Origin: Candidatus Woesearchaeota archaeon
GTDB taxonomy: Archaea; Nanobdellota; Nanobdellia; Woesearchaeales; ARS49
Assembly: GCA_019323575.1 (NCBI GenBank)
Contig: JAHWHB010000013.1
Span: 1 to 38,465, forward strand
DNA length: 38,465 nt
Direction: 5' to 3'
Part shown: positions 1 to 38,465 of the stretch, piece after piece
Position numbering within the stretch: the first letter of the stretch is position 1
How the letters are laid out: every line of letters starts with the position of its first letter
Position numbers and translations under genes: made by a program
The notes under the pieces: generated by a model
What the model saw: only the letters and a program-made list of their open reading frames with translations
What the model was told of the DNA's origin: nothing
The model's database searches: none

Positions 1-254
1 GGGTTCCCGGGAAACTGAGGAAAGTCTGCCCACCATTAAAAGGCGACTCGGAGAAATCTGAGATTCAGTAATGGATGGCTCCATCACAGAAACGGACCTT
101 GCATGAGGAGGATGATGCGTGACTCCCGTGGTGACACGGGCATACGCGTTGACGCTCTCATGCGATTGGATGAAACGGATAGCCCTCGTTGGTGCAAGCA
201 CAGAACGTGCGCTAAGTAGAATGCCCTGAACGCCTGTCCCGGCGGTTAAAACCC
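1..254 (+). ncRNA. rnpB: RNase P RNA (archaeal), apparently complete at the window start
   Basis: Universal CR-I motif GAGGAAAGTC at 17-26. ACAGAA motifs at 86-91 and 200-205, the second followed by CGTGCGCTAAG (CR-V-like). The termini can pair as P1: 1-5 GGGTT with 250-254 AACCC, and 7-11 CCGGG with 238-242 CCCGG. No credible ORF. Confidence 0.8.
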
Positions 255-322
255 GTCACCAGTGTGTTATCATTGGTTTTGGAGGCGTACAAAAGGTAGC
301 TTATGCTTACCCAACCCTTACC

Positions 323-330
323 TTTATATA
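323..330 (+). promoter_or_regulatory. TATA box (TTTATATA) for the sec61beta-nac unit
   Basis: TTTATATA lies 23 nt upstream of the ATG at 353. The same spacing recurs at most first genes in this window and implies leaderless or near-leaderless mRNAs. Confidence 0.6.
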
Positions 331-352
331 CAAACACCAAATTCCAAGGAAC

Positions 353-526
353 ATGGCTCAGGAAAAATCTCGTATGCCGATGTCGACTGCTGGTATTACT
401 TCTTATTTTGAGGAGTATAAGAGCAAGATCGAGTTCAAGCCTGGTCATATCATTATTTTCTCTGTTATCGTTGTTTTGATTGTTATTGCTTTGCACATTT
501 GGGGTTCTTCGTTTTTGGGACTATGA
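353..526 (+). CDS. Preprotein translocase subunit Sec61beta (57 aa; absent from the supplied ORF track because it is short)
   Basis: My translation is MAQEKSRMPMSTAGITSYFEEYKSKIEFKPGHIIIFSVIVVLIVIALHIWGSSFLGL. It has the archaeal Sec61beta pattern (S-x-AG-x-x-x-Y-x-E ... KI..KP followed by one C-terminal TM helix). Its stop overlaps the next ATG (ATGA at 523-526). Confidence 0.8.
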   Translation: MAQEKSRMPMSTAGITSYFEEYKSKIEFKPGHIIIFSVIVVLIVIALHIWGSSFLGL

Positions 527-855
527 AACTTAATCCTCGTGACTTGCAGAAGGCGATGCAGCGTTTTGGTATTCAGCAGCAGGAGGTTGATGCCCAAGAA
601 GTCATTATTCGATGTTCTGACAAGGATATTGTTATAGAAAAGCCTCAGGTTGCCAAGGTTAATATGATGGGCCAGGATACTTGGCAGATTTCTGGTAATG
701 CTGTTGAGAAGCCTCGTTCTTCTGAGCCTGAGATTAAGGAGGAGGATATCCAGACCGTTATGCAGCAGGCCAATGTTTCTAAGGAAAAGGCTTTGGAAGC
801 CATTAAATCAGCTAATGGTGATTTAGCCCAGGCAATACTGAATTTACAATCTTAA
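523..855 (+). CDS. nac: Nascent polypeptide-associated complex protein (NAC domain plus C-terminal UBA-like domain)
   Basis: MKLNPRDLQKAMQRFGIQ...VIIRCSDKDIVIEKPQVAKVNMMGQDTWQISG is a NAC domain. The C-terminal EEDIQTVMQQANVSKEKALEAIKSANGDLAQAI is UBA-like. I take the ATG at 523 as the start, not the upstream TTG at 499. Confidence 0.9.
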   Translation: MKLNPRDLQKAMQRFGIQQQEVDAQEVIIRCSDKDIVIEKPQVAKVNMMGQDTWQISGNAVEKPRSSEPEIKEEDIQTVMQQANVSKEKALEAIKSANGDLAQAILNLQS

Positions 856-2630: not shown

Positions 2631-2632
2631 AG

Positions 2633-2850: not shown

Positions 2851-3324
2851 ATGGCAGAATTTAAACACCTTGTTCGTATCGCGAACACAGACCTTGATGG
2901 CAAGAAAGCAATAGTTTATGCTATGAAGCACATTAAGGGTGTTAGTGTTCCTCTTGCTCATGCTGTTTGCAAGCTTGCTAATGTGAATGAGTTTGAGAAG
3001 TGCGGTAATCTTTCTGATGATGTTATCAAAAAGCTTGATGAGATTGTCAGGACTCTTGACAAGCAGCCCTTGCCTTCTTGGCTGTTTAATAGAAGAAAGG
3101 ATCTTGAGACTGGTGAGAATAAGCATTTTGTTACTAATGATTTGATTTTCAACAAGGAGAATGATATTAAGTTGATGAAGAGGATTAAGTGTTATAGGGG
3201 TGTTCGTCATTCTCAGAATGCTCCTGTGCGCGGTCAGCGTACTCGTAGCAATTTCAGAGCTAACAAGGGCAAGGTTATGGGCGTTAAGACCTCGGGTAAG
3301 AAGGGCGGCCCATCGGGTGGTTAA
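2851..3324 (+). CDS. rps13: 30S ribosomal protein S13 (uS13)
   Basis: MAEFKHLVRIANTDLDGKK...YRGVRHSQNAPVRGQRTRSN is the typical uS13 signature. I prefer the ATG at 2851 over the upstream ORF start at 2809. Confidence 0.95.
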   Translation: MAEFKHLVRIANTDLDGKKAIVYAMKHIKGVSVPLAHAVCKLANVNEFEKCGNLSDDVIKKLDEIVRTLDKQPLPSWLFNRRKDLETGENKHFVTNDLIFNKENDIKLMKRIKCYRGVRHSQNAPVRGQRTRSNFRANKGKVMGVKTSGKKGGPSGG

Positions 3325-3981
3325 ATGGGAGATCCAAGAAGGTTTAGGAACCAGTATTCTCGCCCAAGGCATCCTTGGCAGCTTGCGCGTATTGAAGAGG
3401 AGCGATTGCTTGTTAAAGAGTATGGTTTGAAGACCAAGCGAGAGTTGTGGAAGGTTGATAGTAAACTGAAATCTTTTGCAGAGCAGGCTAAGCGTTTGAC
3501 TGCTTTGCGTACTGAGCAGGCAGAGCTTGAGAAGAAGCAGTTGTTGGAGCGTTTGAACCGTCTTGGCTTGTTGCCTGTTGGCGCTGGCTTGGATGACGTT
3601 CTTGGTTTGAATGTTAAGAATTTGCTTGAGCGTCGTTTGCAGACTCTTGTTTTCAAGAAGGGTTTTGCGAGAAGTCCTAGGCAGGCTCGTCAGTTTATTT
3701 CTCACAGGCATGTTTTGATTGGAAACAAGCAGATGAGTGCTCCTGGTTATCTTGTTCCTGCTGCTGATGAAGAGAGTATTTCTATTGTTGCTACCAGCTC
3801 TTTGTCAAATCCTGAGCATCCTGAGAGAGTTAGGGTTGTTAAGGAAGTTCCTGCAGAGCCTGAACCGGCTCCTGAGAAAAAGCCAAAAGCGCCTAAAAAG
3901 GAAGTGAAAAAGAAGGCTCCTGAGAAAGAAGTGAAAAAGAAGGTTCCTGAAAAAGAGCCTGTGAAGGGTGAGGCGAAATGA
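3325..3981 (+). CDS. rps4: 30S ribosomal protein S4 (uS4) with a Lys/Pro/Glu-rich C-terminal extension
   Basis: [18 protein letters not shown]...[28 protein letters not shown] contains the S4 domain. The last ~45 aa are low-complexity [43 protein letters not shown]. Confidence 0.95.
3901..3954 (+). repeat. Tandem 27-bp duplication inside the rps4 3' end
   Basis: GAAGTGAAAAAGAAGGCTCCTGAGAAA (3901-3927) is followed by GAAGTGAAAAAGAAGGTTCCTGAAAAA (3928-3954), with 2 mismatches. It encodes [18 protein letters not shown]. Confidence 0.9.
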
Positions 3982-4370
3982 GCGAGATCAGATGGGGTGT
4001 GGCTCACATTTATGCTTCTTATAATGACACGATTATTCACATTACTGATATTACGGGTACAGAAACGCTTGCTATGGCTAGCGGTGGTATGATGGTTAAG
4101 GCTTCTCGTCTTGAGAGCTCGCCTACTGCTGCTATGATGGCTGCTAAGCGTGCTGCTGAGACTGCTATGGATAAGGGTGTTATGGGTGTTCATGTTAAGG
4201 TTAAGGCTCCTGGCGGTCATAACGGTCCTCATTCTCCTGGCCCTGGTGCTCAGGCCGCTATCCGAGCTATGAGCAGGATGGGTTTGAAGATTGGAATCAT
4301 TGAAGATGTTACGCCGGTTCCGCACGGCGGTTGTCGTAAGAAAGGTGGAAAGCGGGGAAGGAGAGTATGA
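3978..4370 (+). CDS. rps11: 30S ribosomal protein S11 (uS11)
   Basis: [27 protein letters not shown]...[37 protein letters not shown] overlap with rps4. Confidence 0.95.
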
Positions 4371-5131
4371 TTGAGTTGTTGAAAAAGGATAAGAAGACTG
4401 GAAAGGTTACTTTTGTTTTGAAGAACTCTACTCCGGCTCTTGCTAATGCTTTGCGTCGTGCTATGATGGAAGCTGTTCCTACTATGGCTGTTGATAGTGT
4501 TGAGTTTGTTCAGAATGATGGTGTTTTGTATGACGAGATGGTTGCTCACCGTCTTGGTCTTATTCCTTTGACTACTGATTTGAAGGGTTATGATGTTAGA
4601 AAGCCTGGTGACGAGTTGAGCGCTAAGAACTCTGTTAAGTTGACTTTGAAGGCAAAGGGTCCTTGCACTGTTTATGCAGAGGATCTTAAGAGTAAGGATC
4701 CTAAGATTAAGCCTGTGCATCCCAAGATTCCTATTGCTAAATTGTTGAAGGGGCAGGAGATTGAGCTTATGGCTACTGCTGTTTTGGGTGTTGGCAAGGA
4801 GCATGTTAAGTTTTCTCCCTGTCTTGCTTGGTACACTTACAAGCCTAAGGTTACTGTTAATAACAATCATAAGGATTTTGAAAAGTTCAGGGAGAAATAT
4901 CCTCCTCAGGTTTTCAGCAATGGCAAGATTGATGCCAAGCTGATTGAACAGCATAATTTGTTTGAGGCCTGTGAGGGTGTTAATGATGATATTGTCAAGA
5001 TTGAGTATGATCCTGAAACGTTCATATTTAACATAGAGCCGTGGGGACAGCTTTCCCCGGCTGAGATTTTGGCCTGTGCTGCTGACCACTTATCAAACTT
5101 GTGTGACGATTTTGTCAGCAAGCTCCCCTGA
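4367..5131 (+). CDS. rpoD: DNA-directed RNA polymerase subunit D (Rpo3)
   Basis: [53 protein letters not shown] is the RpoD/Rpb3 dimerisation domain. The position after S13-S4-S11 is the conserved archaeal order. Confidence 0.9.
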
Positions 5132-5132
5132 T

Positions 5133-5218
5133 GCGGGGGTGGCAGAGCTTGGTCAAATGCGCCAGCTTGAGGGGCTGGTTCCTTAGTGGATGCGAGGGTT
5201 CAAATCCCTTCCCCCGCA
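5133..5218 (+). tRNA. tRNA-Leu (GAG), long variable arm
   Basis: Acceptor GCGGGGG/CCCCCGC plus discriminator A. Anticodon arm CCAGC-TTGAGGG-GCTGG. Long variable arm. T loop TTCAAAT. It starts 2 nt after the rpoD stop. Confidence 0.9.
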
Positions 5219-5223
5219 TGGAA

Positions 5224-5280
5224 GCTTCGGGGATCGAGAAGGGGCTGGGAGTTAAGGCCCCTTCGGTATGACTGCGAAGC
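5224..5280 (+). other. Nested stem-loop RNA element between tRNA-Leu and rpl18e
   Basis: Outer stem GCTTCG (5224-5229) / CGAAGC (5275-5280). Inner perfect 8-bp stem GAAGGGGC (5238-5245) / GCCCCTTC (5257-5264) with an 11-nt loop. The asymmetric internal loop contains GA and TGA. Function unknown. Confidence 0.35.
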
Positions 5281-5304
5281 CAAAAATAAAAAATCAGAGT
5301 AAAA

Positions 5305-5667
5305 ATGAAAAGAACAGGTCCGACAAACCCGGTATTGAAGGAGCTCATTCAGAGCTTGAGGAAGGAAAGCACTAGCTCCAAGGCCGCTCTTTGGGACCGT
5401 GTTGCTGATGATTTGGAAAAGTCTACAAGGCAGAGGCGTGTTGTTAATGTGAGCTGCATTTCCCGTTTTACAAAGCCTAATGAGACTGTGATTGTTCCAG
5501 GCAAGGTTTTGGGTTCTGGTGCTGTTGCTCATAGTGTTGTTGTTGCTGCTTTGTCTTTCAGCCAGGGTGCGCGTGAGCGTATTGAGGAGGCTAAGGGTAA
5601 GGCTATCACGATTGAACAGTTATTGAAGCAGAAGCCTAAGGCTAGAGATCTTAGGTTGTTGGGATAA
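5305..5667 (+). CDS. rpl18e: 50S ribosomal protein L18e
   Basis: MKRTGPTNPVLKELIQSLRK...VNVSCISRFTKPNETVIVPGKVLGSG matches L18e, and its position before L13-S9 is conserved. Confidence 0.9.
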   Translation: MKRTGPTNPVLKELIQSLRKESTSSKAALWDRVADDLEKSTRQRRVVNVSCISRFTKPNETVIVPGKVLGSGAVAHSVVVAALSFSQGARERIEEAKGKAITIEQLLKQKPKARDLRLLG

Positions 5668-5669
5668 AC

Positions 5670-6095
5670 ATGGCAGAGATAAATATTGATGCAACTAATG
5701 CGATTGTTGGTCGTTTGGCTACTTATGTTGCCAAGCAGGCTTTGCTTGGTAATTCTGTTAATATTTTTAATTGTGAAAGTGCTGTGATTAGTGGAAAGTT
5801 TTCTTTTGTTCGTCATAAATGGTATCTTCGCTTTTTTGATTTGGGAAGGCCTGAAAAGGGTCCTTTTAGAAGCAGGATGCCTGATCGTTTTGTCAGGAGA
5901 AGTATTCGTGGCATGCTGGATTACAAGCATGAGCGCGGCCGTTCTGCTTTTGAGCGGGTTATGTGTTATATTGGTGTTCCTGAGAAGTTTAAGGACAAAA
6001 AACTTATTAAAGTTTCAAAGGAGGCAAAATCTTTGCCAAGTCATTATTACGTTAAGGTTGGCGATCTTTGTAAGTCTCTTGGAGGAAAGGTATGA
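5670..6095 (+). CDS. rpl13: 50S ribosomal protein L13 (uL13)
   Basis: IDATNAIVGRLATYVAKQALLG...RMPDRFVRRSIRGMLDYK. Confidence 0.95.
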   Translation: MAEINIDATNAIVGRLATYVAKQALLGNSVNIFNCESAVISGKFSFVRHKWYLRFFDLGRPEKGPFRSRMPDRFVRRSIRGMLDYKHERGRSAFERVMCYIGVPEKFKDKKLIKVSKEAKSLPSHYYVKVGDLCKSLGGKV

Positions 6096-6487
6096 AAGTC
6101 ATTCATGAAGTTGGGACTCGTAAAACTGCTGTTGCTCGTGCTACTTTGACTGCTGGCGCGGGTGTTGTTAGGGTTAACAGTCGTTTGTTTTCAACTTTGC
6201 CGAATAACATGTTCCGTGCCAAGATTGAGGAGGCTTTGTTGCTTGCAGGTGATAGCGCCAAGAAGGTTAACATTAGTGTTAATGTTTGTGGCGGCGGTGT
6301 TAACAGCCAGGCAGAGGCTGCTCGTCTTGCTATTGCCAAGGTTTTGGCTGGTTTTGATAAGAAGTTGCGTTCAAAATATTTGGATTATGATCGTGCATTT
6401 ACTGTTGCTGACGTTCGCAGGAAGGAGGCAAGCAAGCCTAACTGTCATGGTCAGGCGCGTGCTAAGCGTCAGAAGTCGTATCGTTAA
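6092..6487 (+). CDS. rps9: 30S ribosomal protein S9 (uS9)
   Basis: GTRKTAVARATL...GGGVNSQAEAARLAIAKVL...ARAKRQKSYR is the typical C-terminus. ATGA overlap with rpl13. Confidence 0.95.
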   Translation: MKVIHEVGTRKTAVARATLTAGAGVVRVNSRLFSTLPNNMFRAKIEEALLLAGDSAKKVNISVNVCGGGVNSQAEAARLAIAKVLAGFDKKLRSKYLDYDRAFTVADVRRKEASKPNCHGQARAKRQKSYR

Positions 6488-6503
6488 GGAGGAAACTAAA
6501 AAA

Positions 6504-6701
6504 ATGATTATTCCAGTTCGTTGTTGGACGTGTGGAAAGCCGGTTGCTCAGTTGTGGGAGGAGTATGACGAGCGTGTCAAGAAGGGCGAGAACAAGAAGG
6601 ATGTTTTGGACGAGCTTGGTCTTGAGCGCTATTGCTGCCGTGCAATGTTCTTGAGCCACGTTGATTTGATTGATACTGTTGCTCAGTTTAAGAAGACGTG
6701 A
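6504..6701 (+). CDS. rpoN: DNA-directed RNA polymerase subunit N (Rpo10), 65 aa
   Basis: MIIPVRCWTCGKPVAQLWEEY...LERYCCRAMFLSHVDL contains the zinc motif CxxC...CC. A Shine-Dalgarno-like AAGGAGG lies at 6487-6493. The supplied ORF 6162..6701 is an artefactual upstream extension into rps9. Confidence 0.95.
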   Translation: MIIPVRCWTCGKPVAQLWEEYDERVKKGENKKDVLDELGLERYCCRAMFLSHVDLIDTVAQFKKT

Positions 6702-7252
6702 TGTTTGTTATTGAGCACCTGGAACCAAAACTTTTCAAATGGTGTTTTCTTGAGTATTTGCATATTTCTTCTTTTGTTGGTAAGGAGAATCTTTTTTTTA
6801 CCAACATTAAGAGCGAGAAACTAAAGAAGTATGGCAAAGTTGAGGAGAAAAGTGTTAGAGAGCTTCATTTTGAGAATGCTTGTGTTCTTGATCCTGAGGC
6901 AGAGGAGACTTTGACTCCTGAGATCGCAAAAAAATTCAATTATTTCATTTTTGGTGGTATTCTTGGTGATGACCCTCCTAAATTGCGTACTAAGGTTGAG
7001 CTTACGAAGTTTTTGCCTTATCCTGCGTTTAATCTTGGCAAGGCTCAGATGTCTACTGATACTGCTGTTATTGTTACTAAGCTCATTGTTGACGGCAAAA
7101 AACTCTCAGAGCTTGAGTTTCAGGATGGTGTTGATATTCCTATTGCAGAGGGCGAAGAGGTTCACTTGCCTTACAAGTATCTTTTAGTTGGCAATAAGCC
7201 TTTGCTTGCCCCTGGTATTGTTGATATGCTTAAGAAGCAGAAGAGTTTCTAA
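6701..7252 (+). CDS. SPOUT-family methyltransferase, DUF431 (yeast Sfm1-like)
   Basis: MFVIEHLEP..W..LEY at the N-terminus, then CVLDPEAE, FIFGGILGDDPPKLRT and AQMSTDTAV. These match the DUF431/Sfm1 pattern as I remember it. The start overlaps the rpoN stop (TGATG). Confidence 0.7.
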   Translation: MFVIEHLEPKLFKWCFLEYLHISSFVGKENLFFTNIKSEKLKKYGKVEEKSVRELHFENACVLDPEAEETLTPEIAKKFNYFIFGGILGDDPPKLRTKVELTKFLPYPAFNLGKAQMSTDTAVIVTKLIVDGKKLSELEFQDGVDIPIAEGEEVHLPYKYLLVGNKPLLAPGIVDMLKKQKSF

Positions 7253-7950
7253 GCAATCATTCTGAATCTTTCTTGAAGAGTGGTATTTGCAGGACAGAAC
7301 CCCTGTTTCTTCCATAAAAGATATTTTGTGAAACTTGCTTGATTATTCATTCCGATAAGTTGTATCCACTTTTCAAGCATATTAACACCGCGTATAGTAA
7401 TAACTGCTGCAGGTTTTTCCCATTCATAACTTGGTTTGTGGATATTAAAAGTTGCTCGAATTTCTAGTTTTGTAAGTAATTTGTGAATTTGGCGTATTAA
7501 TTCAAACGATCTGGAAGAAAGGAATATTCTTGGGTAAGTGTGATGTTCTTTCTTGAATTGTGAAGCAGTGCCCTTTCTTTTGCTAAAATTAAGACAACCA
7601 TCGCCGTCAAAAAATCCTCTGATAAAACTTGTCCATATTTCAGGATTGTTGCTTTTTATTATTTTTTCAGGTATTTTTACGGTATATGTCTTTTTGCCTG
7701 CATTAAAACCAAGTTTATTGAATGTTTTTATTACTTTTTTATCACATATATAGAAACCATAAACCGAATTGCTTCTTTTTTCATGGCATCTTGGTGTTAT
7801 TTTGAATTCTTTTTTGAATAATTTAGTTAAAACTTGGTCGTAATATGCTCTGTCTTCAGTAATGTTGCCCCAAATACAAAGGTGGGCCTTCTGTATGGAC
7901 CCGTCTGCAGCGAAAATGCCCGCTATTTCAGCCAGCTCTTTTGAAATCAT
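7249..7950 (-). CDS. Free-standing LAGLIDADG homing endonuclease-like protein (two motifs, monomeric type)
   Basis: Motif 1 is LAEIAGIFAADGSI and motif 2 is FIRGFFDGDGCL, about 100 aa apart. I prefer the ATG at 7950 (TATA-like GTTTAAAAG at 7972-7980, 22-30 nt upstream); the track ORF starts at GTG 7992. It is not embedded in any host gene, so it is neither an intein nor intron-encoded. Confidence 0.8.
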   Translation of the reverse strand: MISKELAEIAGIFAADGSIQKAHLCIWGNITEDRAYYDQVLTKLFKKEFKITPRCHEKRSNSVYGFYICDKKVIKTFNKLGFNAGKKTYTVKIPEKIIKSNNPEIWTSFIRGFFDGDGCLNFSKRKGTASQFKKEHHTYPRIFLSSRSFELIRQIHKLLTKLEIRATFNIHKPSYEWEKPAAVITIRGVNMLEKWIQLIGMNNQASFTKYLLWKKQGFCPANTTLQERFRMIA

Positions 7951-8043
7951 TAAAATTGTAAAGTTTCCGAAGTTTAAAAGCGCTGCGCGCACGTGTCCAG
8001 TGGAAAACTTTAAAAGGAGTGAAGGTGGAATTCTTATGATAGT

Positions 8044-8147
8044 GGGGCTGTAGCTCAGCTTGGATAGAGCGGCTGTGCAAAAGCGCCGAACCTTCTATTC
8101 CGAGAGGAGAGAGCAGAAGATCGGGGGTTCAAATCCTCCCAGCCCCG
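8044..8147 (+). tRNA. tRNA-Arg (UCU) interrupted by two short introns (8076-8090 and 8098-8111)
   Basis: Acceptor GGGGCTG/CAGCCCC with discriminator G. The D arm is identical to that of tRNA-Arg(CCU) at 34106. T arm GGGGG-TTCAAAT-CCTCC. The gene is 104 nt, and removing 15 + 14 nt gives a 75-nt tRNA with anticodon arm GCTGC-CTTCTAA-GCAGA. Each insertion is flanked by a bulge-helix-bulge arrangement (details in findings). Confidence 0.75.
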
Positions 8148-28828: not shown

Positions 28829-28846
28829 ATTTTTTTCTCCAATATC

Positions 28847-28858
28847 TTTTTATAAAAA
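28847..28858. promoter_or_regulatory. Perfectly palindromic TATA element shared by two divergent leaderless genes
   Basis: TTTTTATAAAAA is its own reverse complement. Its centre (28852/28853) is 24.5 nt from both the minus-strand ATG (28828) and the plus-strand ATG (28877). Confidence 0.6.
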
Positions 28859-28876
28859 CCTTTCCTTCTGTAATGC

Positions 28877-29449: not shown

Positions 29450-29450
29450 A

Positions 29451-29729: not shown

Positions 29730-31480
29730 ACGTAATACAGCTTTCCTGTTTCTCTTTGTTCTCTGTCTAGTCTGCTTTCTGGTTTGTTGATTCTTGGTCT
29801 GTTTGTTTCTTTGTCTCTTCGCATTGTTATCTTTAGGTCTGTTAGGAATTTGTTCATTCCTTGTTCCATTGAGAATGGTCCTTCTACTTTTCCTTGTTTT
29901 GCTGGTTTTCCGTCAAATACTATTAGCTTGTCAGAAAGATAATCTATGAACAGTAAGTCGTGGTCCACTATTAGTATGCTTACTCCTCTTTGTTCTGCTA
30001 TGTCTCTGATTACTTTGCTGAAAGCCAGTCTTTGTTCGATGTCTAGATAGGCGCTTGGCTCGTCTAATAAGTACAAGTCTGCTGGCTGTGAGAGGCATCT
30101 TGCTATTGCTACTCTTTGCAGCTCTCCTCCTGACAATGTGTTTAGTGGTTTCAGAAGTAAATTGTGTATCTCTAACGGTTTTACTATTTGGTTGTTGTAT
30201 TTTTCTACTGCTTGTTTTAGTACTGTCATGACTATTTCTTCGCTGCTGGCTTCTAGGTATTGTGGTTTGTATGATACTTTTATTTTTGTGTCTACTTCTC
30301 CTTTGTCTGGGTTTATCTCTCCTGCTAGTATTTTTACAAATGTTGTTTTTCCTATTCCGTTCTCGCCTAATATGCCTAGTATTTGGTTTCTTCCTATGTT
30401 TCCTTCTTTTGCGTTTAGGTGGAAGCTTCCTAGTGTTTTTTGTATATCTCCCCAGTTTGTTAGTGTTACTTTGCTGATTGGTTTTGGTGGTGGTTTTGAT
30501 GTGAATGCTATTTTGTGGTCTCTGAATCTCATGTTTTCGTCTGCTATGAATCCGTCTAGGTAGATGTTCATTCCTGTTCGTGTTGTTTTTGGAAGGCTTA
30601 CTATTCCGTATGCTCCTTCTTTTCCGTACATTATGTGTAACAAATCCGTCATATAATCCAGAATTATCAAATCGTGCTCTACTACTAATACTGCTGTTTT
30701 TTCGTCTGCTAGTGTTTTGATGAATTTGCTTACTCTTATTCTTTGTTTTATGTCAAGATAAGAAGATGGCTCGTCGAAGATGTACAGGTTTGCTTTTCTT
30801 AGTACTGTTGCTGCTATTGCTGTTCTTTGTAGTTCTCCTCCTGATACTTGTGTTATGTCTCTGTCCAGCACTTCTCTGAGGTCTAGCGCATCTACGACTT
30901 CATCGAACTTTCCTGTTTCGTCTACTTTTTTGAGTAAGTCTGCTACTTTTCCTTTCATTGCTTGTGGTATTAGTTCTACGTGTTGTGGTTTGTATGAGAC
31001 TTTGATTTTTCCGTCTCTTACTGCTTCGAAGTATGTTTGTGCTTCTTTGCCTTTGAAGAATTTGACCAGTTCTTTCCATTCTGTTTCTTTGTCTGTTCCT
31101 AGGTTTGGTTTTAGTGTTCCTGCTAGTATTTTGATTGCTGTTGATTTTCCTATTCCGTTTTTGCCTACTATTCCTACTACTTTGCCGAATAGTGGTGTTG
31201 GTAGAGAATAAAGGTGGAATCCGTTTGGTCCGTATCTGTGGATTGGGTTTTCTAGTTGTTCTGGTAGGTTTATGATGTCTATTGCTTCGAATGGGCATCT
31301 GTTTGGGCAGATTCCGCATCCTGTGCATAGTGTTTCATCTATTTTGGGCTTTTTTTCTGGTGTTTCTGTTAGTATGCAGTCCTTGCCTTCCATGTTGACC
31401 GGGCAGACTCTTGCGCATAGGAAGCCTCCGCATCCTTGCGGGTTGCACCGGTCTTTTCTTACTATGGCTATTCGTGGCAT
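29726..31480 (-). CDS. ABCE1 / RNase L inhibitor-type ribosome recycling ATPase
   Basis: The N-terminal double 4Fe-4S domain is CNPQGCGGFLCARVCP...CTGCGICPNRCP. It has two ABC cassettes (GIVGKNGIGKST, LSGGELQR; GILGENGIGKTT, LSGGELQR). Confidence 0.95.
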   Translation of the reverse strand: MPRIAIVRKDRCNPQGCGGFLCARVCPVNMEGKDCILTETPEKKPKIDETLCTGCGICPNRCPFEAIDIINLPEQLENPIHRYGPNGFHLYSLPTPLFGKVVGIVGKNGIGKSTAIKILAGTLKPNLGTDKETEWKELVKFFKGKEAQTYFEAVRDGKIKVSYKPQHVELIPQAMKGKVADLLKKVDETGKFDEVVDALDLREVLDRDITQVSGGELQRTAIAATVLRKANLYIFDEPSSYLDIKQRIRVSKFIKTLADEKTAVLVVEHDLIILDYMTDLLHIMYGKEGAYGIVSLPKTTRTGMNIYLDGFIADENMRFRDHKIAFTSKPPPKPISKVTLTNWGDIQKTLGSFHLNAKEGNIGRNQILGILGENGIGKTTFVKILAGEINPDKGEVDTKIKVSYKPQYLEASSEEIVMTVLKQAVEKYNNQIVKPLEIHNLLLKPLNTLSGGELQRVAIARCLSQPADLYLLDEPSAYLDIEQRLAFSKVIRDIAEQRGVSILIVDHDLLFIDYLSDKLIVFDGKPAKQGKVEGPFSMEQGMNKFLTDLKITMRRDKETNRPRINKPESRLDREQRETGKLYYV

Positions 31481-32024: not shown

Positions 32025-32486
32025 ATGGACAAGGAAGCTTATGATAAACTGAAAAAAGAGCATGGCATTCTGCCTGATTTTAATGCTATTAACAGGGAGT
32101 TTGAGTTGGAGTTTATTGAGCCTCAGTGTTTTCCTTTGAGGCTTATCAAGCGTAAGATTGCTGAGAGGCTTGAGCCTGTTTTGGAGATTCTTGAGCACGT
32201 TGTTAATCCTGATCCTAACAATTTTGTTGATATGTGTGAGTGCAGGTGTTTTACTAATGGTGAGAAGAAGCAGATTCTTGACATTTTCCGTCATATGATG
32301 GAGGAGTATCGTTCTTTGTTGGAGACTGATTTGTTGTGTGATGACGAGAAGGATGCTCAGCTGATTAGGAAAATATATGATCTTTGGGTTCAGGAAAAAA
32401 AGCTTGTTCTGCCTATTATTAAAAAATTGAAGGGTTGCTGGCAGAAGCATGTTGAGCCTAAGGAAGTTTTGGAGTATTTGGGATGA
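32025..32486 (+). CDS. Hypothetical protein (153 aa), translationally coupled to adk
   Basis: TATA (CTTTATAAAA, about 31994-32003) lies 22-31 nt upstream of the ATG. ATGA overlap with adk. Codon dialect fits the + strand. I recognise no family. Confidence 0.55.
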   Translation: MDKEAYDKLKKEHGILPDFNAINREFELEFIEPQCFPLRLIKRKIAERLEPVLEILEHVVNPDPNNFVDMCECRCFTNGEKKQILDIFRHMMEEYRSLLETDLLCDDEKDAQLIRKIYDLWVQEKKLVLPIIKKLKGCWQKHVEPKEVLEYLG

Positions 32487-33106
32487 ACATTATTCTTTTT
32501 GGCGCGCAGGGTTCTGGTAAAGGCACTCAGGCCAAGCTTCTTGTTGAGAAGTTTGGTTTTAAGCATATTTCTACTGGTGATTTGATTAGGAAGGGTGTTG
32601 CTGATAATGATCCTGATGCTTTAAAACTGAAAAAAGAGTATATGGACAAGGGTCTTCTTGCTCCTGACGAGCTTGTTGTTAAGATTGTTGAGAAGAATCT
32701 TTCAGAAAAAAATATTTTTGATGGTTTTCCGAGGACTCTTGCTCAGGCTGAAATGCTTGACGAAAAAACTGCTATTGCTGCTGTTATTGAGCTTAAGATT
32801 CCTGATGAGGTTTCTGTTAAGAGATTATCCAGTCGTCGGCAGTGCAGGAAGTGCAATGCGATTTACGGCGCCGAAAATCCTTCTAAAGAGGAAAACAAGT
32901 GTGATGCTTGTGGTGGCGAGCTTTATCAGCGTGATGACGACAAGCCCGATGCTATTAAGAAGCGTTTGGAGTTGTATCATGATGAGACTGAGCCTTTGCT
33001 TGAGTATTATAAGCCGAGAAAGATAGTGCACGAGGTTGACGGCACTAAGAGCATTCAGGACATTTTCAAGGATGTCTGCAAGATCATAGAAACCATAGGA
33101 ATTTGA
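32483..33106 (+). CDS. adk: Adenylate kinase (long, bacterial-type with a zinc-binding lid)
   Basis: The P-loop is ILFGAQGSGKGTQ, followed by ISTGDLIR. The lid is CRKCNAIY...CDACGGELYQRDDD (CxxC...CxxC). Confidence 0.95.
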   Translation: MNIILFGAQGSGKGTQAKLLVEKFGFKHISTGDLIRKGVADNDPDALKLKKEYMDKGLLAPDELVVKIVEKNLSEKNIFDGFPRTLAQAEMLDEKTAIAAVIELKIPDEVSVKRLSSRRQCRKCNAIYGAENPSKEENKCDACGGELYQRDDDKPDAIKKRLELYHDETEPLLEYYKPRKIVHEVDGTKSIQDIFKDVCKIIETIGI

Positions 33107-33139
33107 GAATTCCGTGGGATTCAAGAATTGCATATTCAT

Positions 33140-34051
33140 TCATTTTTGCAATTCTTGAAACGCTTGCCTTATGAATTCTGTTGCGTAGCTTCCTTTTGGC
33201 AGAAAGAACTCGAGTATTATTTTCCCGTCTTCTTCTGTAATCTTTAGTTGTTTTGCTTCTGCCCAGACTTTTCTTGTTGCTCCTTCTGTGCTTGCTTCTG
33301 GCAGTTCTCTGATTATGAAGTCTGATAATTTGAGTTTTTCCTCATTGAGTATTTTTTGTGTTGTTTCATCGATTTCTTCTGTTCCAAACCCTATTATCGG
33401 TAATTCTTCTTTGTCTGTTCGCATTGCTGCTTTATTCCATAGCTGGCTTTGGTATGCGTGTATGTATAAGAGCAATAGTTTTCTTGGGATGCATCTTAGT
33501 GCTCCTATCCAGTCTTTTTTGTCTGTGTGTGTTCTTATTTTGGCTGCTGCCTGCGGGTTTGACTCCACAATTTTTTTCACTGCTTGTTCAAACTCTCTTT
33601 TTACTATGTGCTTGCCAATTTCCGCATTATTTGTGCTGAATCTTTGCTCTCCGAACAAGTTTCTGAATTTTCGTTTTATCTCTTTTTTTTCTGCATTTCT
33701 GACTGTTATTCTAAACTGGTTTCCTTCTAGCTGTCCTAGGTGTACTGGTTCGTCTCCGTATCCTAGAAAGGTGAGTTTGATGTCTTGCAGTTGTGTGTTT
33801 TCTAGTTTTTCTTTTGTTATTCCGTAGGCTCCGCAGGTTTGTTCTGTTATTGCTTTTCTGTCTTTGTTGCCTGCATACGATAGTGCTCCTGCCGGTACGC
33901 GCCATGCTGTTGCCAGTCTTTTTAGCGCCTCCATTGTTGTGAGGTCTTTTTTCCATAGTCTGAAGTAGATGTATTTGCCTGAGCTTTTCGTTCTTACTGT
34001 GCTTTTTTCTGTTACTTGGAAGTCTTCTGGCTCTTGCTTGATTGTGTACAT
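33140..34051 (-). CDS. truD: tRNA pseudouridine synthase TruD/Pus7 family
   Basis: PEDFQVTE at the N-terminus, the catalytic motif YAGNKDRKAITEQ (GxKD) and FGEQRFS. Confidence 0.85.
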   Translation of the reverse strand: MYTIKQEPEDFQVTEKSTVRTKSSGKYIYFRLWKKDLTTMEALKRLATAWRVPAGALSYAGNKDRKAITEQTCGAYGITKEKLENTQLQDIKLTFLGYGDEPVHLGQLEGNQFRITVRNAEKKEIKRKFRNLFGEQRFSTNNAEIGKHIVKREFEQAVKKIVESNPQAAAKIRTHTDKKDWIGALRCIPRKLLLLYIHAYQSQLWNKAAMRTDKEELPIIGFGTEEIDETTQKILNEEKLKLSDFIIRELPEASTEGATRKVWAEAKQLKITEEDGKIILEFFLPKGSYATEFIRQAFQELQK

Positions 34052-34073
34052 ATGTCGTCGACAAAGATAAAGG

Positions 34074-34081
34074 TTTAAAAA
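34074..34081. promoter_or_regulatory. Single TATA-like element shared by divergent truD and tRNA-Arg(CCU)
   Basis: TTTAAAAA is centred about 26 nt from the truD ATG (34051) and about 28 nt from the tRNA 5' end (34106). The spacer is 54 nt. Confidence 0.45.
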
Positions 34082-34105
34082 GTCTTCGTAGAAAGGAATT
34101 GTTAT

Positions 34106-34180
34106 GCGCCTGTAGCTCAGCTTGGATAGAGCAGTCGGTTCCTAACCGAAAGATCCGGGGTTCAAATCCTCGCAGGCGCG
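34106..34180 (+). tRNA. tRNA-Arg (CCU)
   Basis: Acceptor GCGCCTG/CAGGCGC with discriminator G. Anticodon arm GTCGG-TTCCTAA-CCGAA (G27-A43 mismatch). T arm CGGGG-TTCAAAT-CCTCG. Confidence 0.9.
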
Positions 34181-34181
34181 T

Positions 34182-35234
34182 ATGTACCGTCCTATTCATG
34201 TTTTGCAGGGTTTGAGGTATTTTTCTGAGTCTTTGAAGCAGAAGTTTCTGGGTTCCAAAAAATACAAGGGCAGTGCAGATGAAATCTGCGCTAAAATAGT
34301 TAAGGATTGTTGGAATGGTGTTTATTTTCAGGCGAGCCCTCATCATTATAGGGAGTTTTGGACTAGGGATTTTGGTTATTGTGCTGGAAGTCTTGTTAAG
34401 TTGGGTTATTTGAAAGAGGTGAAGAAGACTCTTGCTTTTGCTCTTGAAAAATTCTCTAAAACTGGCATTAAGACTACTATTAGCAGGGATGGCATTCCTT
34501 TTTCTTTTCCTAATGTTTATAGTCCTGATTCTGTTGCTTTGCTGCTCCACGCCTTAAGGATTGCAAACGATAAAGCGCTTGTAAAAAGATACAAATCTTT
34601 CTTGCAGAGGGAGGTTGATGCTTTCTCGCATCTTGTTCTGGAGGATGGCAGAGTCAGAAGGAATATTCATTTTTCTGGTATGCGGGATTATGCTTTAAGG
34701 GACAGCAGTTGTTATGATCATTGTATGGCTGTTTTGCTTGCAAGAGAGGCTAAGAAGCTTGGCTTTAAGTTTGCTTATACTGAAAAGGAACTTGTCAAAA
34801 AGCTTGATGACTATTGGAGGGGTTATTATTGTGATGATAGGAGTAGTTCTGAGCCAAGCGGTGATGCTAATGCTCTTCCTTACTGGTTGGGTGTTGGCAG
34901 GAACTTTGATAAGAGTCTTAGAACTATTCGTAAGAAAGGGCTTGATGTTCCTCTTCCTTTGAAATATGGCAGTAAGCCGAAGATGATTAAGTCAGAGGTT
35001 TTTGTTCCTAATTGGGAGACTCAGGCAACTTGGCCTTTTCTTGGTTTTATCTGGTTGCAGGCTGTTAGGAAGTACAAGCCTGCTCTTGCTAAGAAATACA
35101 GGGCAGATTATGCTAAAATCATAGAAAAATATAGTACTTTGTATGAGGTTTACATGAATGGCAGGCCTTACAGGTCTTTGTTTTATCATGCAGATGAGGG
35201 CATGCTTTGGTCTGCTATGTTTTTGACTATATGA
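34182..35234 (+). CDS. Putative (alpha/alpha)6-barrel glycoside hydrolase-like protein
   Basis: FWTRDFGYCAGSL resembles the W/F-x-RD motif of six-hairpin glycosidases (GH15/GH63/GDE-like). The pattern is helix-rich. The ATG begins 1 nt after the tRNA's discriminator base. Weak functional call. Confidence 0.4.
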   Translation: MYRPIHVLQGLRYFSESLKQKFLGSKKYKGSADEICAKIVKDCWNGVYFQASPHHYREFWTRDFGYCAGSLVKLGYLKEVKKTLAFALEKFSKTGIKTTISRDGIPFSFPNVYSPDSVALLLHALRIANDKALVKRYKSFLQREVDAFSHLVLEDGRVRRNIHFSGMRDYALRDSSCYDHCMAVLLAREAKKLGFKFAYTEKELVKKLDDYWRGYYCDDRSSSEPSGDANALPYWLGVGRNFDKSLRTIRKKGLDVPLPLKYGSKPKMIKSEVFVPNWETQATWPFLGFIWLQAVRKYKPALAKKYRADYAKIIEKYSTLYEVYMNGRPYRSLFYHADEGMLWSAMFLTI

Positions 35235-35278
35235 ATAGCTGCGCGGATATATTCTTCTTGTCTGGTGTTTTTGGATTG

Positions 35279-35317
35279 AATTTCTTCTCCCCTTAGCTTG
35301 CGCGGGGAGAAGAAATT
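35279..35317. terminator. Perfect 14-bp inverted repeat in a convergent intergenic spacer
   Basis: AATTTCTTCTCCCC (35279-35292), an 11-nt loop, then GGGGAGAAGAAATT (35304-35317). It lies between the stops at 35234 (+) and 35345 (-). Confidence 0.5.
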
Positions 35318-35344
35318 TAGTGAATGCGCGAAGAAAAAAGGGTA

Positions 35345-36583
35345 TTACCACTTTCTTTTTGTTCTTGCCAGTTCGTGGTAGATTGAGGATACCCAGTTTA
35401 GTGTTGAGAAGTATGGCATTAATACTACGTAGGAGAATAGCGGTGTTAGCTGGTTGCTTAGTCTTTCCTTGAATAGTCTGTGGGCGAAATATATTAGGTA
35501 CGCGCCGAGGATGAACACCAGTATTACCGGCAGGTATACTTGTACGTTTCTTGCTAGTATGAACTCGTTTAGTGTTGGCAGGCTTGTGATTCTGTCCAAA
35601 AAGTATCCTGGTATTGTCATGCTTCTGAATGAGAAGTTTATCAGCCTGTCTATTCCGTCGTATGATATTATGCTGATGTTTGCTATTAGCAGCAGTATTG
35701 CTAGCACGTTGACTGGCAGCTGGAACACTCCGAATAGTCCGTGTTTATTTGAGAAGAACATGCTTTTGTATTTCCAGTGGTTTATGATGTATCCTCTGGT
35801 CCATCTTATTCTTTGCCTCCAGAGGTCTGCTAATGTTTCTGGTACTTTTGTGTAGGTTATGCTTTCCGGCTCCATTACTACGTCGTAGCCTTTGTATTTT
35901 AGCCTCATTGCTATTTCCAGGTCTTCTGTGAGGTTGTTTCTGTCTTTTGTGAACCCTCCTATTTTCTTGAGGGTTTTTGTGCGGTATAATGATAGGACTC
36001 CGGGCGTCATTGACAGTGTTCCGAAGTTCGACATGATTTTTCTTACCATGCTGGACATTATGTATTCTACTCTTTGTAGTCTTTCGAGGAAGTTTTCTGC
36101 TTTTTCTACTTTTATCCTGCTTATTACTGCTCCTACTTTTTTGCTTGTGTAGTTTGATAGTGAGATGGTTATGCTGTCTTTTGATATTTTGCTGTCTGCG
36201 TCTACTACTGCGAAGAATTCTCCTTTTGCTTTTTTCAGTGCGACGTTTAGCGCTGATGCTTTTCCGCCGTTTTCTTTGTGATATACTCTTAATGGTAGTT
36301 CTGGGTGTTGTTTTTTGAATTTTTTGAGTTTTGATAGCGTGTTGTCTTCGCTTCCGTCATCTACTGCTATGACATCTAATAGCTCTTTTGGGTATCCTGA
36401 CGCGAATATTGATTTTATGGTTCTTATGGCGTCTTTGTCATTGTTTTTGCTGTATACTGGTATTCCTATTGTGATTGTTGATATTACATTCGCTCGTTTT
36501 ACTGGTGCGTATAGGAAGTTCAGCCAGACTATGGTAAGCCATAGTGTGATGAATGAAATTCCCCATAACATATACTGTAGCAT
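35345..36583 (-). CDS. Processive family-2 glycosyltransferase (PgaC/NodC/cellulose-synthase-like) with flanking TM helices
   Basis: VIAVDDGSEDNT (DxD-type UDP-sugar site), VVDADS, LTEDLEIA and the processivity motif QRIRWTRG (QxxRW). There is an N-terminal TM helix and about 4 C-terminal TM helices. A palindromic TATA, CCTTTATAAAGG, lies at 36605-36616. Confidence 0.8.
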   Translation of the reverse strand: MLQYMLWGISFITLWLTIVWLNFLYAPVKRANVISTITIGIPVYSKNNDKDAIRTIKSIFASGYPKELLDVIAVDDGSEDNTLSKLKKFKKQHPELPLRVYHKENGGKASALNVALKKAKGEFFAVVDADSKISKDSITISLSNYTSKKVGAVISRIKVEKAENFLERLQRVEYIMSSMVRKIMSNFGTLSMTPGVLSLYRTKTLKKIGGFTKDRNNLTEDLEIAMRLKYKGYDVVMEPESITYTKVPETLADLWRQRIRWTRGYIINHWKYKSMFFSNKHGLFGVFQLPVNVLAILLLIANISIISYDGIDRLINFSFRSMTIPGYFLDRITSLPTLNEFILARNVQVYLPVILVFILGAYLIYFAHRLFKERLSNQLTPLFSYVVLMPYFSTLNWVSSIYHELARTKRKW

Positions 36584-36666
36584 ATAGGTTAAAAGCTTAT
36601 TATCCCTTTATAAAGGTTGCGCTAGTTTTATATACGAGAAACAGGGTTTTTGGCTATGGGGGTAAA

Positions 36667-37347
36667 ATGGACAATTATGTGCGTATTTTGACTGTTATCA
36701 GCCTTCTGATTTTCCTAGTTATGATTCCTTTGGCCTTGCTTACTGGTGTGCCTGGCTTTATTCCTGATATTGTTTTTTTCATGGTTTTGGTTTTGTTTTA
36801 TTATTGGACCTATGATGCTTTTAGGAATAATATGCCTATTTTTACACTGTTAGTCATAGGCCACCTGTTGCACGCGTGCGGTATTTTTGGCTGGTATAAT
36901 ATTTCTCCTGTTCCTATTCAATGGGATCATTTGACTCACTTTTTTGGCACTCTGCCTTTTGCTTTGTTGTTTTTCAGGTGGGCTGGGCAGTGGATGGATG
37001 CCAAGTTTTTGACTAAGAAGAATCTTTTGTTAGTTATTGTTGTTTTCTTTGCAGCTATGGGTGTTGGTGCTATGGTTGAGCTTATTGAGTTTCTTGGCTA
37101 CCTGTCTCTTGGCTTTGGCGAGGGCGCTTTGATGTTTGGCACTGGCGATGGTATTGCTGGTCTAGGCGGTACTGATTTGATTGATGCGCTTGGCGGTGGC
37201 TGGATTAATGAGGGCTGGGATTTTGTGTTTAACACTTTTGGAATACTGTCGGGTATGTTTTTGATGATTATTCTCAAAATTATCAATCGAAAGCCGCAGA
37301 AAGCCTATTATTACGTGCCTATTGAGAGTTATTCTAAGAAAATTTAA
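36667..37347 (+). CDS. Hypothetical polytopic membrane protein with a Gly-rich loop
   Basis: I prefer the ATG at 36667, with TATA TTTTATATA at 36626-36634. About 6 hydrophobic segments, plus GFGEGALMFGTGDGIAGLGGTDLIDALGGGW. Family not recognised. Confidence 0.55.
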   Translation: MDNYVRILTVISLLIFLVMIPLALLTGVPGFIPDIVFFMVLVLFYYWTYDAFRNNMPIFTLLVIGHLLHACGIFGWYNISPVPIQWDHLTHFFGTLPFALLFFRWAGQWMDAKFLTKKNLLLVIVVFFAAMGVGAMVELIEFLGYLSLGFGEGALMFGTGDGIAGLGGTDLIDALGGGWINEGWDFVFNTFGILSGMFLMIILKIINRKPQKAYYYVPIESYSKKI

Positions 37348-37753
37348 AATGTTTGTTTAATTCTAATTTATTGAAGATATCAACTTCTTCGTGGAAGAAA
37401 TCAGCCAGTTTTCTTTTGCAGGAGTGTAATGGCAGCCATTCAAATTTTGTGTGTTCCTCGCTTAAGCGTATTTTGTTGTTTAGGGCTTTGCATAAGTATA
37501 TTATCATGGTGATGGTTTGGCCGTCTTTTCTGACGAAATGTTGTACGTTTAAGGGCTGCAGAATTTCAATGTCTAGGTCTGCTTCTTCTTTTACCTCTCT
37601 TTTTAGTCCTTCTTCTGGGTTTTCGCCGATTTTCAGACGTCCGCCGGGAAGTTCGTAGATGTCGGGATTTTGGCTGTCGTTTGGAGCTCTTTTTAGTGTT
37701 AGTAATTCATTTTTTTTGATGATGAATGCTTTGACGGCAACTCTAAAATCCAT
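37334..37753 (-). CDS. NUDIX hydrolase
   Basis: The Nudix box is GGRLKIGENPEEGLKREVKEEADL (GX5EX7REUXEEXGU). It lies 4 nt downstream of gatE. Confidence 0.85.
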   Translation of the reverse strand: MDFRVAVKAFIIKKNELLTLKRAPNDSQNPDIYELPGGRLKIGENPEEGLKREVKEEADLDIEILQPLNVQHFVRKDGQTITMIIYLCKALNNKIRLSEEHTKFEWLPLHSCKRKLADFFHEEVDIFNKLELNKHFKFS

Positions 37754-37757
37754 TTCT

Positions 37758-38465
37758 TTATCCCTTTGCGAGTTTCTTCAGCAGTTCTGCAATCTTTTGT
37801 CCTGATGCTTTTCCTCTTAGTTGTGCCATTGCTTTGCCCATTAATGCGTTTGGTGGTGCTCCTTTGTTTTGTTCTATGATTTTTGTTAGTTCTCGCAATA
37901 GTTCTCCTTCTGCTAGTGTTTTGTATTTGTTCAGCACTGTCTTTACTGGTTTGTTCTCTTTTAGTATGTCCAGCACGCTTTCTTTTGATATCTCGTCGTG
38001 TTCTAGTGCTGTGAATAGTGTGCAGTAGTCTTCGTCTGTTGGTGTGATTTCTATGTTGAATTGTCGTTTGATGGTTCTTTCTGCGGTCATTAGTATTTCT
38101 GCTATGTATGCTGGTTTTAATGTTTTGAATGACTTCACGAATTGGTCGAATAGTGCTGCTTTTTCTGATTTTGCTGTTAGTTCTGCTAAATCTGCTCCTA
38201 TTCCCATTTTTTCGTATCTTTTTATTTTGTGTTCTATGAGTTCTGGCAGTTCTACTTCCAGCATTTCTTTTGTTAGTTTTATTGGCAGCACGTCTGTTTC
38301 TGGGTACATTCTTGCTGCTCCTGGCATTAGCCGCATGAATGTTGTTGTTCCGTCTTCGTTTGGCTTTCTGACTTCTTTTGGTACTCCTTTTATTGCGTCG
38401 TTTGCTCTTATTATTACTGCTTGCAGTGCTTTTTCTGATTTTTCTTTTGTGTCTGCTACTATTAC
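37758..38465 (-). CDS. gatE: Glutamyl-tRNA(Gln) amidotransferase subunit E, C-terminal part (gene continues beyond the window end)
   Basis: RLMPGAARMYPETD is the GatE signature. The frame stays open upstream of the track's Met to position 38465 (my translation: ...KPNEDGTTTFMRLMPG). The C-terminal domain is GatB/YqeY-like. Confidence 0.8.
   Translation of the reverse strand, partial: VIVADTKEKSEKALQAVIIRANDAIKGVPKEVRKPNEDGTTTFMRLMPGAARMYPETDVLPIKLTKEMLEVELPELIEHKIKRYEKMGIGADLAELTAKSEKAALFDQFVKSFKTLKPAYIAEILMTAERTIKRQFNIEITPTDEDYCTLFTALEHDEISKESVLDILKENKPVKTVLNKYKTLAEGELLRELTKIIEQNKGAPPNALMGKAMAQLRGKASGQKIAELLKKLAKG

Follow-up and report, generated by a model that had tools for sequence, protein, structure and literature searches.

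In bacteria, the leading and lagging strands differ by 1.0 percentage point on average in their T content at four-fold degenerate sites, and in 25 archaea such asymmetries are weak and often inconsistent, several species, including Nanoarchaeum equitans, having no skew (Khrustalev and Barkovsky, PMC3269017). Morton and Morton expressed the replication-dependent component in 352 bacterial chromosomes as a fractional excess of T and of G at four-fold sites, with maxima of 0.300 for T in Borrelia burgdorferi, 0.433 for G in Blochmannia and 0.446 for the two combined (PMC2099444). Here we analyze a stretch of 38,465 nucleotides (nt), hereafter the window, which is one complete contig (JAHWHB010000013.1, assembly GCA_019323575.1) of an uncultured DPANN archaeon of the Woesearchaeota. 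In this species, the two strands differ by 66 points in four-fold T, and the same index is about 0.86 for T and about -0.07 for G, our index being an approximation of the published one and the survey dating from 2007 and covering bacteria only. With that approximation, the T bias is about three times the bacterial record of the survey, in line with the initial annotation of this DNA, made from the sequence alone, which had judged the bias far larger than the skews usual in archaea.

Several described systems resemble the window. In B. burgdorferi, Ehrlichia, Blochmannia, Lawsonia and Chlamydia, the division between strands is the main trend in codon usage, and this bias has been attributed to mutation rather than selection (PMC2099444, PMC2671203, PMC3023944). 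In the Candidate Phyla Radiation (CPR), Kadnikov et al. (2020) described closed genomes of the order UBA1400 (Ch65, Collierbacteria, Beckwithbacteria) with a G/C disparity over the whole chromosome; in Ch65 (801 kb), one strand contains 29.8% C and 15.0% G, the cumulative skew is monotonic and genes show no strand bias, and unidirectional replication was proposed for genomes of this type (PMC7143001). In animal mitochondria, one strand is rich in T and G, most strongly at four-fold sites; inversion of genes or of the control region reverses the skew, and the composition of proteins is affected as well (PMC3269012, PMC4182315, PMC2779903). Among archaea, a peaked cumulative GC skew of the bacterial type was reported for 18 of 224 RefSeq genomes and for one DPANN genome, 'Forterrea' (PMC7111523).

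As in the Borrelia-type bacteria, strand is the main axis of codon usage in the window, T and, over the whole sequence, G are in excess on the strand presumed to lead, and amino acids are affected. Unlike in those bacteria, there is no keto skew (G over C together with T over A at neutral sites), since T greatly exceeds A with a GC skew of -0.03; the magnitude is far larger and dominated by A/T, genes show no strand bias, and the host is an archaeon. With the UBA1400 genomes the window shares an ultra-small uncultured organism, a very large strand disparity, an even division of genes between strands and a trait held at clade level. Their disparity, however, lies between G and C (skew about 0.33) with A and T nearly equal, whereas the window has 39.1% T against 20.3% A and a modest G/C skew; theirs was shown around whole closed chromosomes, ours over 62 kb of the species and 156 kb in a relative. 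Flatworm and nematode mitochondria have T-rich coding strands, and the vertebrate heavy strand is rich in G and T. The likeness to animal mitochondria extends to each of the four properties listed above, although these organelle genomes are 15 kb long, replicate by strand displacement and have a gradient of skew along their length, while ours is a cellular chromosome with no gradient over 52 kb. Ordinary archaeal replichore skews (Pyrococcus, other Euryarchaeota, 'Forterrea') are unlike the window in being weak and usually described for G/C. We found no description of such a bias in Woesearchaeota or DPANN in the open-access literature, a scope within which absence is not proof. The bias of the window is of a known, mutational kind; what is new is its magnitude, its A/T-dominated pyrimidine signature, its presence where genes show no strand bias and its spread over a DPANN clade.

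Results

The + strand of the window contains 15031 T, 7802 A, 8892 G and 6740 C (39.1, 20.3, 23.1 and 17.5%), which gives an (A-T)/(A+T) of -0.317 and a (G-C)/(G+C) of +0.138. In stretches of 500 nt, AT skew is negative in 97.6% and GC skew positive in 86%. The initial annotation had described this strand as T-rich and A-poor under genes of either orientation, and the TA skew of 0.317 exceeds the bound of about +/-0.1 that it had set against its own claim. Six of its seven hand counts of 60-nt lines were exact (positions 36301-36360 hold 31 T, not 32), and its codon counts were right except for AAG, which occurs 6 rather than 7 times in the first 105 codons of glyA. Its statement that G exceeds C on the + strand stands for the sequence as a whole and fails at four-fold sites, where G and C are equal (GC skew -0.03); the overall excess of G comes from the preference for NNG over NNA at two-fold sites and from codon position 1.

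Genes on the two strands use mirror-image codon dialects. Read in the coding sense, third codon positions are T 0.525 and A 0.086 in + genes and A 0.578 and T 0.066 in - genes, so that the mirrored third-position preferences that had been proposed are borne out strand by strand. Four-fold sites are more extreme, with T 0.718, A 0.070, C 0.114 and G 0.098 in + genes against A 0.719, T 0.053, C 0.115 and G 0.113 in - genes, or AT skews of -0.82 and +0.86. All synonymous families follow this pattern (+ against - genes): GCT 0.70 against GCA 0.84, GTT 0.80 against GTA 0.62, AAG 0.75 against AAA 0.89, GAT 0.75 against GAC 0.84, and CGT/AGG against AGA. In a principal component analysis of relative codon usage in 40 genes, a multivariate check on strand as a factor in codon usage, which had also been suggested, the first axis takes 81% of the variance and separates + from - genes without overlap. 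Ribosomal protein genes and unknown open reading frames (ORFs) give the same skew values. The low-skew patches of the window are structural RNA genes (RNase P RNA, signal recognition particle (SRP) RNA and tRNAs) and one LAGLIDADG-like gene.

The bias belongs to the DNA strand and not to the genes. When composition at four-fold sites is read on the + strand and broken down by neighboring base, sites in + and - genes behave alike: the frequency of C is 0.28 and 0.23, respectively, after G, 0.20 and 0.19 before A, 0.06 and 0.06 after T, and 0.07 and 0.07 before G. Agreement of neighbor effects across both coding senses argues against selection at the level of codons. In the window and its relatives alike, four-fold C on the T-rich strand persists where G precedes it (about 0.25) and is depleted where T or C does (0.06-0.09), and this dependence on context might reflect one particular lesion, enzyme or pattern of methylation.

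Rearranged orthologues lead to the same conclusion. In the related locus L020, the genes for ABCE1, Endo_dU, DUF885, Trm61 and leucyl-tRNA synthetase (LeuRS) keep the order and relative orientations of the window, yet each is written in the opposite dialect. In assembly GCA_040961615.1 (locus L146), a block of GatD, GatE, DUF2238, GT2, TruD and Adk is inverted relative to LeuRS in comparison with the window, and the dialects of its genes are flipped. Inverted segments, the L020 block and the GatE block of L146, thus carry the bias of their new strand. Since the dialect of orthologues switches with the orientation of the block, the bias is a property of the chromosomal strand, independent of coding sense, shared by the clade in graded form and re-formed after a block is reoriented. 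These data uphold the earlier proposal of a mutational pressure stronger than translational selection, with mirrored synonyms, matching neighbor effects and flipped orthologues all on its side.

The LAGLIDADG-like gene is the only sizeable gene of the window without strand bias, and a LAGLIDADG_3 gene elsewhere in a relative (L146, 16179-17174) is likewise unskewed. This suggests that the LAGLIDADG copies are mobile and recently inserted, and the gene in the window probably arrived too recently to have acquired the bias. It lies 50 nt from an intron-containing tRNA.

The bias extends well beyond the window. Through the window's proteins, we found further loci in other assemblies of the same species (L156, L007 and L059), which add about 18.7 kb to the left of position 1 and 4.7 kb beyond the right end (to 43.2 kb) for a total of 61.9 kb. 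The 67 genes called over these 62 kb are about evenly split between strands (36 + and 31 -), and all but one or two small ones have the same sign of skew. On the + strand, their four-fold sites are T 0.72, A 0.06, C 0.11 and G 0.10, with a (T-A)/(T+A) of +0.83 from + genes and +0.87 from - genes. Skew shows no significant slope with position over 52 kb, a short span with four-fold sites near saturation. Several unrelated sequencing projects have yielded the same sequence at 99.93-100% identity, in 18-20 contigs, and it recurs in a metagenome-assembled genome at NCBI (GCA_019323295.1); the independent assemblies of the species have about 14 real differences, too few for a mutation spectrum.

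Among relatives, the bias is graded. We scanned 43 GTDB loci around LeuRS, which served as the marker for finding relatives, and 80 metagenome loci around DNA gyrase A (GyrA), most of the latter from unskewed distant organisms. GTDB species representatives whose LeuRS is 66-77% identical (L013-L025) have four-fold TA skews of 0.35-0.78 in magnitude, and the more distant DPANN loci L033 and L053 reach about 0.4. Control loci from Methanocellales, Methanofastidiosa and other DPANN lie mostly within about +/-0.1, with one value of -0.19 (L043). The four-fold skew index among relatives runs from 0 to 0.85, more than 15 relatives exceed 0.30 in the T index, and in several the T-rich strand is slightly C-rich at four-fold sites. 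A close relative represented by an 875-kb contig (Ga0247727_10000001) has a four-fold skew of 0.58, sampled at 38.7-60 kb only, and the lineage of a 505-kb contig is unskewed. No Orc1/Cdc6-like ORF occurs in any of the loci analyzed. In the species itself, GyrA is encoded at 4943-7381 of locus L007, about 3.6 kb left of the window start, and its copies in close relatives are 85-87% identical.

Two further observations concern these loci. Just past ABCE1, where synteny with the window ends, genes in L020 (42-2949), L021 (144-2347) and L022 (277-3884) are hardly biased or unbiased and lack homologues in the window, and this DNA may have been gained recently at a hot spot of rearrangement. Locus L034 (GTDB contig CAYVNO010000003.1, 22946-45771), which is archaeal with 34% G+C, has a GC skew of +0.35 over its whole sequence and 22 of 24 genes on one strand, an asymmetry of another kind than the T/A bias of the window.

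The bias reaches the proteins. The amino-acid composition of + and - encoded proteins differs (chi-square 218, 19 degrees of freedom, p = 7e-36). Proteins encoded on the + strand are richer in Val (8.3% against 5.0%), Leu (10.8% against 8.6%) and Ser (5.6% against 4.2%) and poorer in Thr (3.8% against 6.5%), Lys (9.2% against 11.4%) and Ile (6.7% against 8.2%); Phe and Gly are also higher in these proteins, and Gln and Glu in those encoded on the - strand. Orthologues on opposite strands, a comparison that the initial annotation had put forward, follow the strand. GatE has 5.3% Val and 6.6% Thr on the A-rich strand of the window species and 8.4% Val and 3.3% Thr on the T-rich strand in L146, and LeuRS has 4.8% Val and 7.5% Thr in the window against 7.8% Val and 5.0% Thr in L020. 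Across 45 orthologues of six proteins, the skew at codon positions 1 and 2 tracks the four-fold skew (r = 0.62, p = 6e-6), with Val rising and Thr falling on the T-rich strand.

Reading frames are affected in a more specific way than had been supposed. The initial annotation held that stop codons are depleted in all non-coding frames and that spurious ORFs abound; the depletion proved to be confined to particular frames, and the abundance was correct. From base composition, 5.3-5.9 stops per 100 codons are expected, against 6.2 for symmetric sequence. The codon-aligned antisense frame of + genes, in which most codons start with A, the complement of third-position T, has 1.15 stops per 100 codons. 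Two frames of - genes have 1.6 and 2.1, and other frames are enriched in stops, up to 12.9 per 100 codons. Outside called genes we counted 56 ORFs of at least 100 aa, or 14.6 per 10 kb, against 1.8-5.7 spurious ORFs of this size per 10 kb in four unskewed archaeal loci of similar G+C. Frequent 3' overlaps of convergent genes had been noted as well, and five of the nine convergent pairs of protein genes do overlap.

Public gene calls conflict between assemblies of identical sequence. Four short ORFs on the opposite strand take the place of RNase J (L007/L008, 1-1300), an antisense ORF of 137 aa is called instead of the real gene (L002, 18160-18573), and the length given for top6B (window 9841-11619) is 542, 555 or 592 aa. 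These conflicts likely stem from the skew-driven excess of antisense ORFs.

The composition of unconstrained sites indicates what kind of pressure acts. On the + strand, two-fold sites have a T/(T+C) of 0.80 and a G/(G+A) of 0.79, and four-fold sites are 83% pyrimidine; together, these values require both a transition and a transversion asymmetry. On the assumption that both classes of site are almost neutral and close to equilibrium, the product of the C-to-T and A-to-G strand asymmetries is about 15, and changes from purine to pyrimidine on the + strand exceed the opposite ones by a factor of about five. The signature is one of T over A and pyrimidine over purine, and differs from the usual bacterial excess of G over C.

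Features of the window

The best matches of LeuRS, GatE and RNase J are proteins labelled Candidatus Woesearchaeota, Nanoarchaeia or Nanoarchaeota. The window has a coding density of about 90% and a content of housekeeping genes, identified by their Pfam families: the S13-S4-S11-RpoD-L18e-L13-S9-RpoN operon, ThyX, GlyA, FolC, RIO kinase, DnaG, Top6A/B, LeuRS, ABCE1, TruD, Adk and the start of GatDE. Its RNA genes encode RNase P RNA, SRP RNA and six tRNAs. Gene coordinates (Table 1) come from our own simple caller and agree with external gene calls for the same sequence. In the ribosomal protein and RNA polymerase operon, the four-fold AT skew of individual genes on the + strand ranges from -0.6 to -0.9. 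A horizontally acquired island was considered and rejected, the region consisting of housekeeping genes syntenic with relatives.

Table 1. Coordinates of features in the window (positions 1 to 38,465)
Feature	Position	Strand	Remarks
Single skew domain, + strand T-rich and A-poor	1..38465		T 39.1%, A 20.3%, G over C overall; from base counts
RNase P RNA, truncated by window start	1..312	+	Low skew; structure constrained
Ribosomal protein and RNA polymerase operon (S13, S4, S11, RpoD, tRNA-Leu, L18e, L13, S9, RpoN)	2851..6701	+	Pfam; T/G dialect (NNT, NNG codons)
LAGLIDADG-like gene	7249..7992	-	Four-fold T 0.34, A 0.41 on + strand; unbiased
Intron-containing tRNA (104 nt; intron presumed)	8044..8147	+	Found by Rfam, missed by ARAGORN
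top6A, top6B, KH-domain gene	8772..12011	-	Mirror A/C dialect (NNA, NNC codons)
thyX, glyA	12107..15073	+	T/G dialect
3' overlap of convergent glyA (+) and folC (-), 77 nt	14997..15073		From gene coordinates
DnaG primase, DUF87 ATPase	17245..19831	+	T/G dialect
SRP RNA	22643..22916	+	Low skew
CYTH gene, leucyl-tRNA synthetase	22895..26223	-	A/C dialect; four-fold A skew 0.88 in coding sense
DUF885 (-), Endo_dU (+), small ORF (+), ABCE1 (-)	27230..31480		Same order in relative L020, opposite dialect there
153-aa ORF, Adk, TruD, tRNA-Arg, 350-aa ORF, GT2, DUF2238, NUDIX, 3' part of GatE	32025..38465		Block inverted relative to LeuRS in GCA_040961615.1, dialects flipped

The Endo_dU family gene (PF01949; 28877-29449, +) and the NUDIX hydrolase gene (37334-37753, -), whose skew is weaker than that of adjoining genes, indicate that the genome encodes at least some means of dealing with damaged or deaminated nucleotides. 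The type of thymidylate synthase is swapped within the clade: the window has thyX-glyA-folC (12107-16181), and GCA_040961615.1 has thyA and a dihydrofolate reductase gene beside glyA (L144, 20761-22793).

Discussion

We consider the best explanation of these data, with a probability of roughly 0.7, to be a strand-asymmetric mutation pressure that is linked to the direction of replication and overrides codon selection. The core of this interpretation, that strand-asymmetric mutation pressure beats codon selection, is well supported; we infer the link with replication, the identity of the T-rich strand with the leading strand, and the chemistry of damage. The two strands would mutate differently because they have different roles at a fork that passes in one direction. 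Unconstrained sites on the + strand would be pushed towards T and away from A, through C-to-T, A-to-G and purine-to-pyrimidine changes, the last mostly to T. An excess of hydrolytic and oxidative damage on one strand could produce these changes, with deamination of C and A on the one hand and, on the other, purines that are lost or oxidized and opposite which A is then inserted. The pressure far outweighs synonymous selection: genes in + sense end their codons in T or G and genes in the opposite sense in A or C, and the pressure spills over into codon positions 1 and 2 and alters protein composition.

The location of highly expressed genes fits this reading. The T-rich strand carries the ribosomal protein and RNA polymerase operon, the SRP RNA, the RNase P RNA and five of the six tRNAs, as expected if such genes are co-oriented with the fork. 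The initial annotation had placed the window in one replichore with the + strand leading; its constant sign now holds over 62 kb, and the replichore is consistent with this and with the position of the highly expressed genes. By analogy, it is plausible that the window lies within one replichore and that its T-rich strand is the leading strand.

Several observations weigh against an explanation by replication-linked mutation. The link with replication, though plausible, rests on analogy. No switch of sign, as at an origin or terminus, was seen in the 62 kb of the species or in about 20 skewed loci of relatives, nor on the 229-kb contig of a relative (JBFONE010000054.1), which is A-rich on one and the same strand at all three points sampled (14.6-36.5, 115.3-138.1 and 148.9-170.2 kb) over a span of 156 kb. 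The four-fold GC skew is about zero or slightly C-rich, unlike the G-over-C signature of cytosine deamination in bacteria, and the skew is accompanied by no gene-strand bias (36 + against 31 - genes over 62 kb). In true spacers, which total 2.06 kb in stretches of 10-356 nt, AT skew is -0.06, whereas a pure mutation model leads one to expect skew there too. In their strand component, the spacers are similar to codon positions 1 and 2, whose values are about -0.14 and -0.08. Spacers are visibly full of promoter motifs resembling the TATA box and the B recognition element, and the larger apparently intergenic gaps are the RNase P RNA, SRP RNA and tRNA genes. We assume that the low spacer skew reflects constraint in a very compact genome, in which the spacers do not serve as a neutral reference.

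The alternative that survives best is that the whole chromosome has an asymmetry of a single sign. Replication would run essentially in one direction, or by strand displacement with one strand single-stranded for long, as in animal mitochondria; the same strand would be T-rich all around the circle, and there would be no replichores. The tiny-genome CPR bacterium Ch65 and its two relatives provide a precedent (PMC7143001), and this alternative would agree with the lack of a switch in 62 kb here and over 156 kb in the relative, with the absence of gene-strand bias, and with a magnitude and a direction towards T and G like those of the mitochondrial heavy strand. By our estimate, however, which assumes the genome size, a genome of about 1 Mb with two replichores would show no switch over 156 kb about 70% of the time, so that its absence is weak evidence. 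There is also no gradient of skew over 52 kb, other archaea and one DPANN genome have ordinary peaked cumulative skews (PMC7111523), and the CPR case is a G/C disparity without an A/T disparity, the opposite of the window. We regard a single-sign chromosome as unlikely. If true, it would mean that a free cellular lineage replicates in an organelle-like or plasmid-like mode, a parallel to the G/C disparity of certain CPR bacteria.

Selection is far less probable as an alternative to mutation. The two gene sets would have to differ in translation, nucleotide cost or properties of their mRNA, and the contrast between nearly unskewed spacers and extreme third codon positions could be read in this way. 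Yet one tRNA pool cannot favor opposite codons, the pattern on the DNA strand is identical for both gene orientations, neighbor effects included, the dialect of orthologues flips when a block is inverted, and ribosomal protein genes give the same values as unknown ORFs. Together, these results bring selection close to refutation.

An asymmetry of damage or repair coupled to transcription, acting differently on sense and template strands, has in its favor the transcription-associated skews of other organisms and a coding density of about 90%; it predicts one coding-sense bias for all genes and is refuted by the opposite signs observed (-0.82 and +0.86). Although C-to-T type changes on one strand can arise from DNA damage or chemical conversion, an artefact of strand-specific sequencing damage, a converted library or chimeric assembly is refuted by the same sequence in 18-20 contigs of several unrelated projects and in GCA_019323295.1, by intact reading frames, conserved catalytic motifs and orthologues that are 73-87% identical, and by the occurrence of both signs of skew among relatives.

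If the comparison with published surveys holds, this clade, with about 72% T and 6% A at neutral sites of one strand, has the strongest chromosomal strand bias that we found for a cellular organism, and its occurrence in archaea is notable in that skews there are usually weak. Sequence of this kind has practical consequences. Gene finders return conflicting calls and many predicted antisense ORFs, and binning or detection of horizontal transfer that relies on codon usage or composition will split one genome into two dialects. Strand-dependent amino-acid composition moreover brings compositional heterogeneity into the disputed phylogeny of DPANN. For the biology of these archaea, the clade is a natural test case for the lesions, polymerases or lost repair functions that make archaeal strands mutate differently, and a route to asking how DPANN archaea replicate their chromosomes, from one origin with two forks or in one direction.

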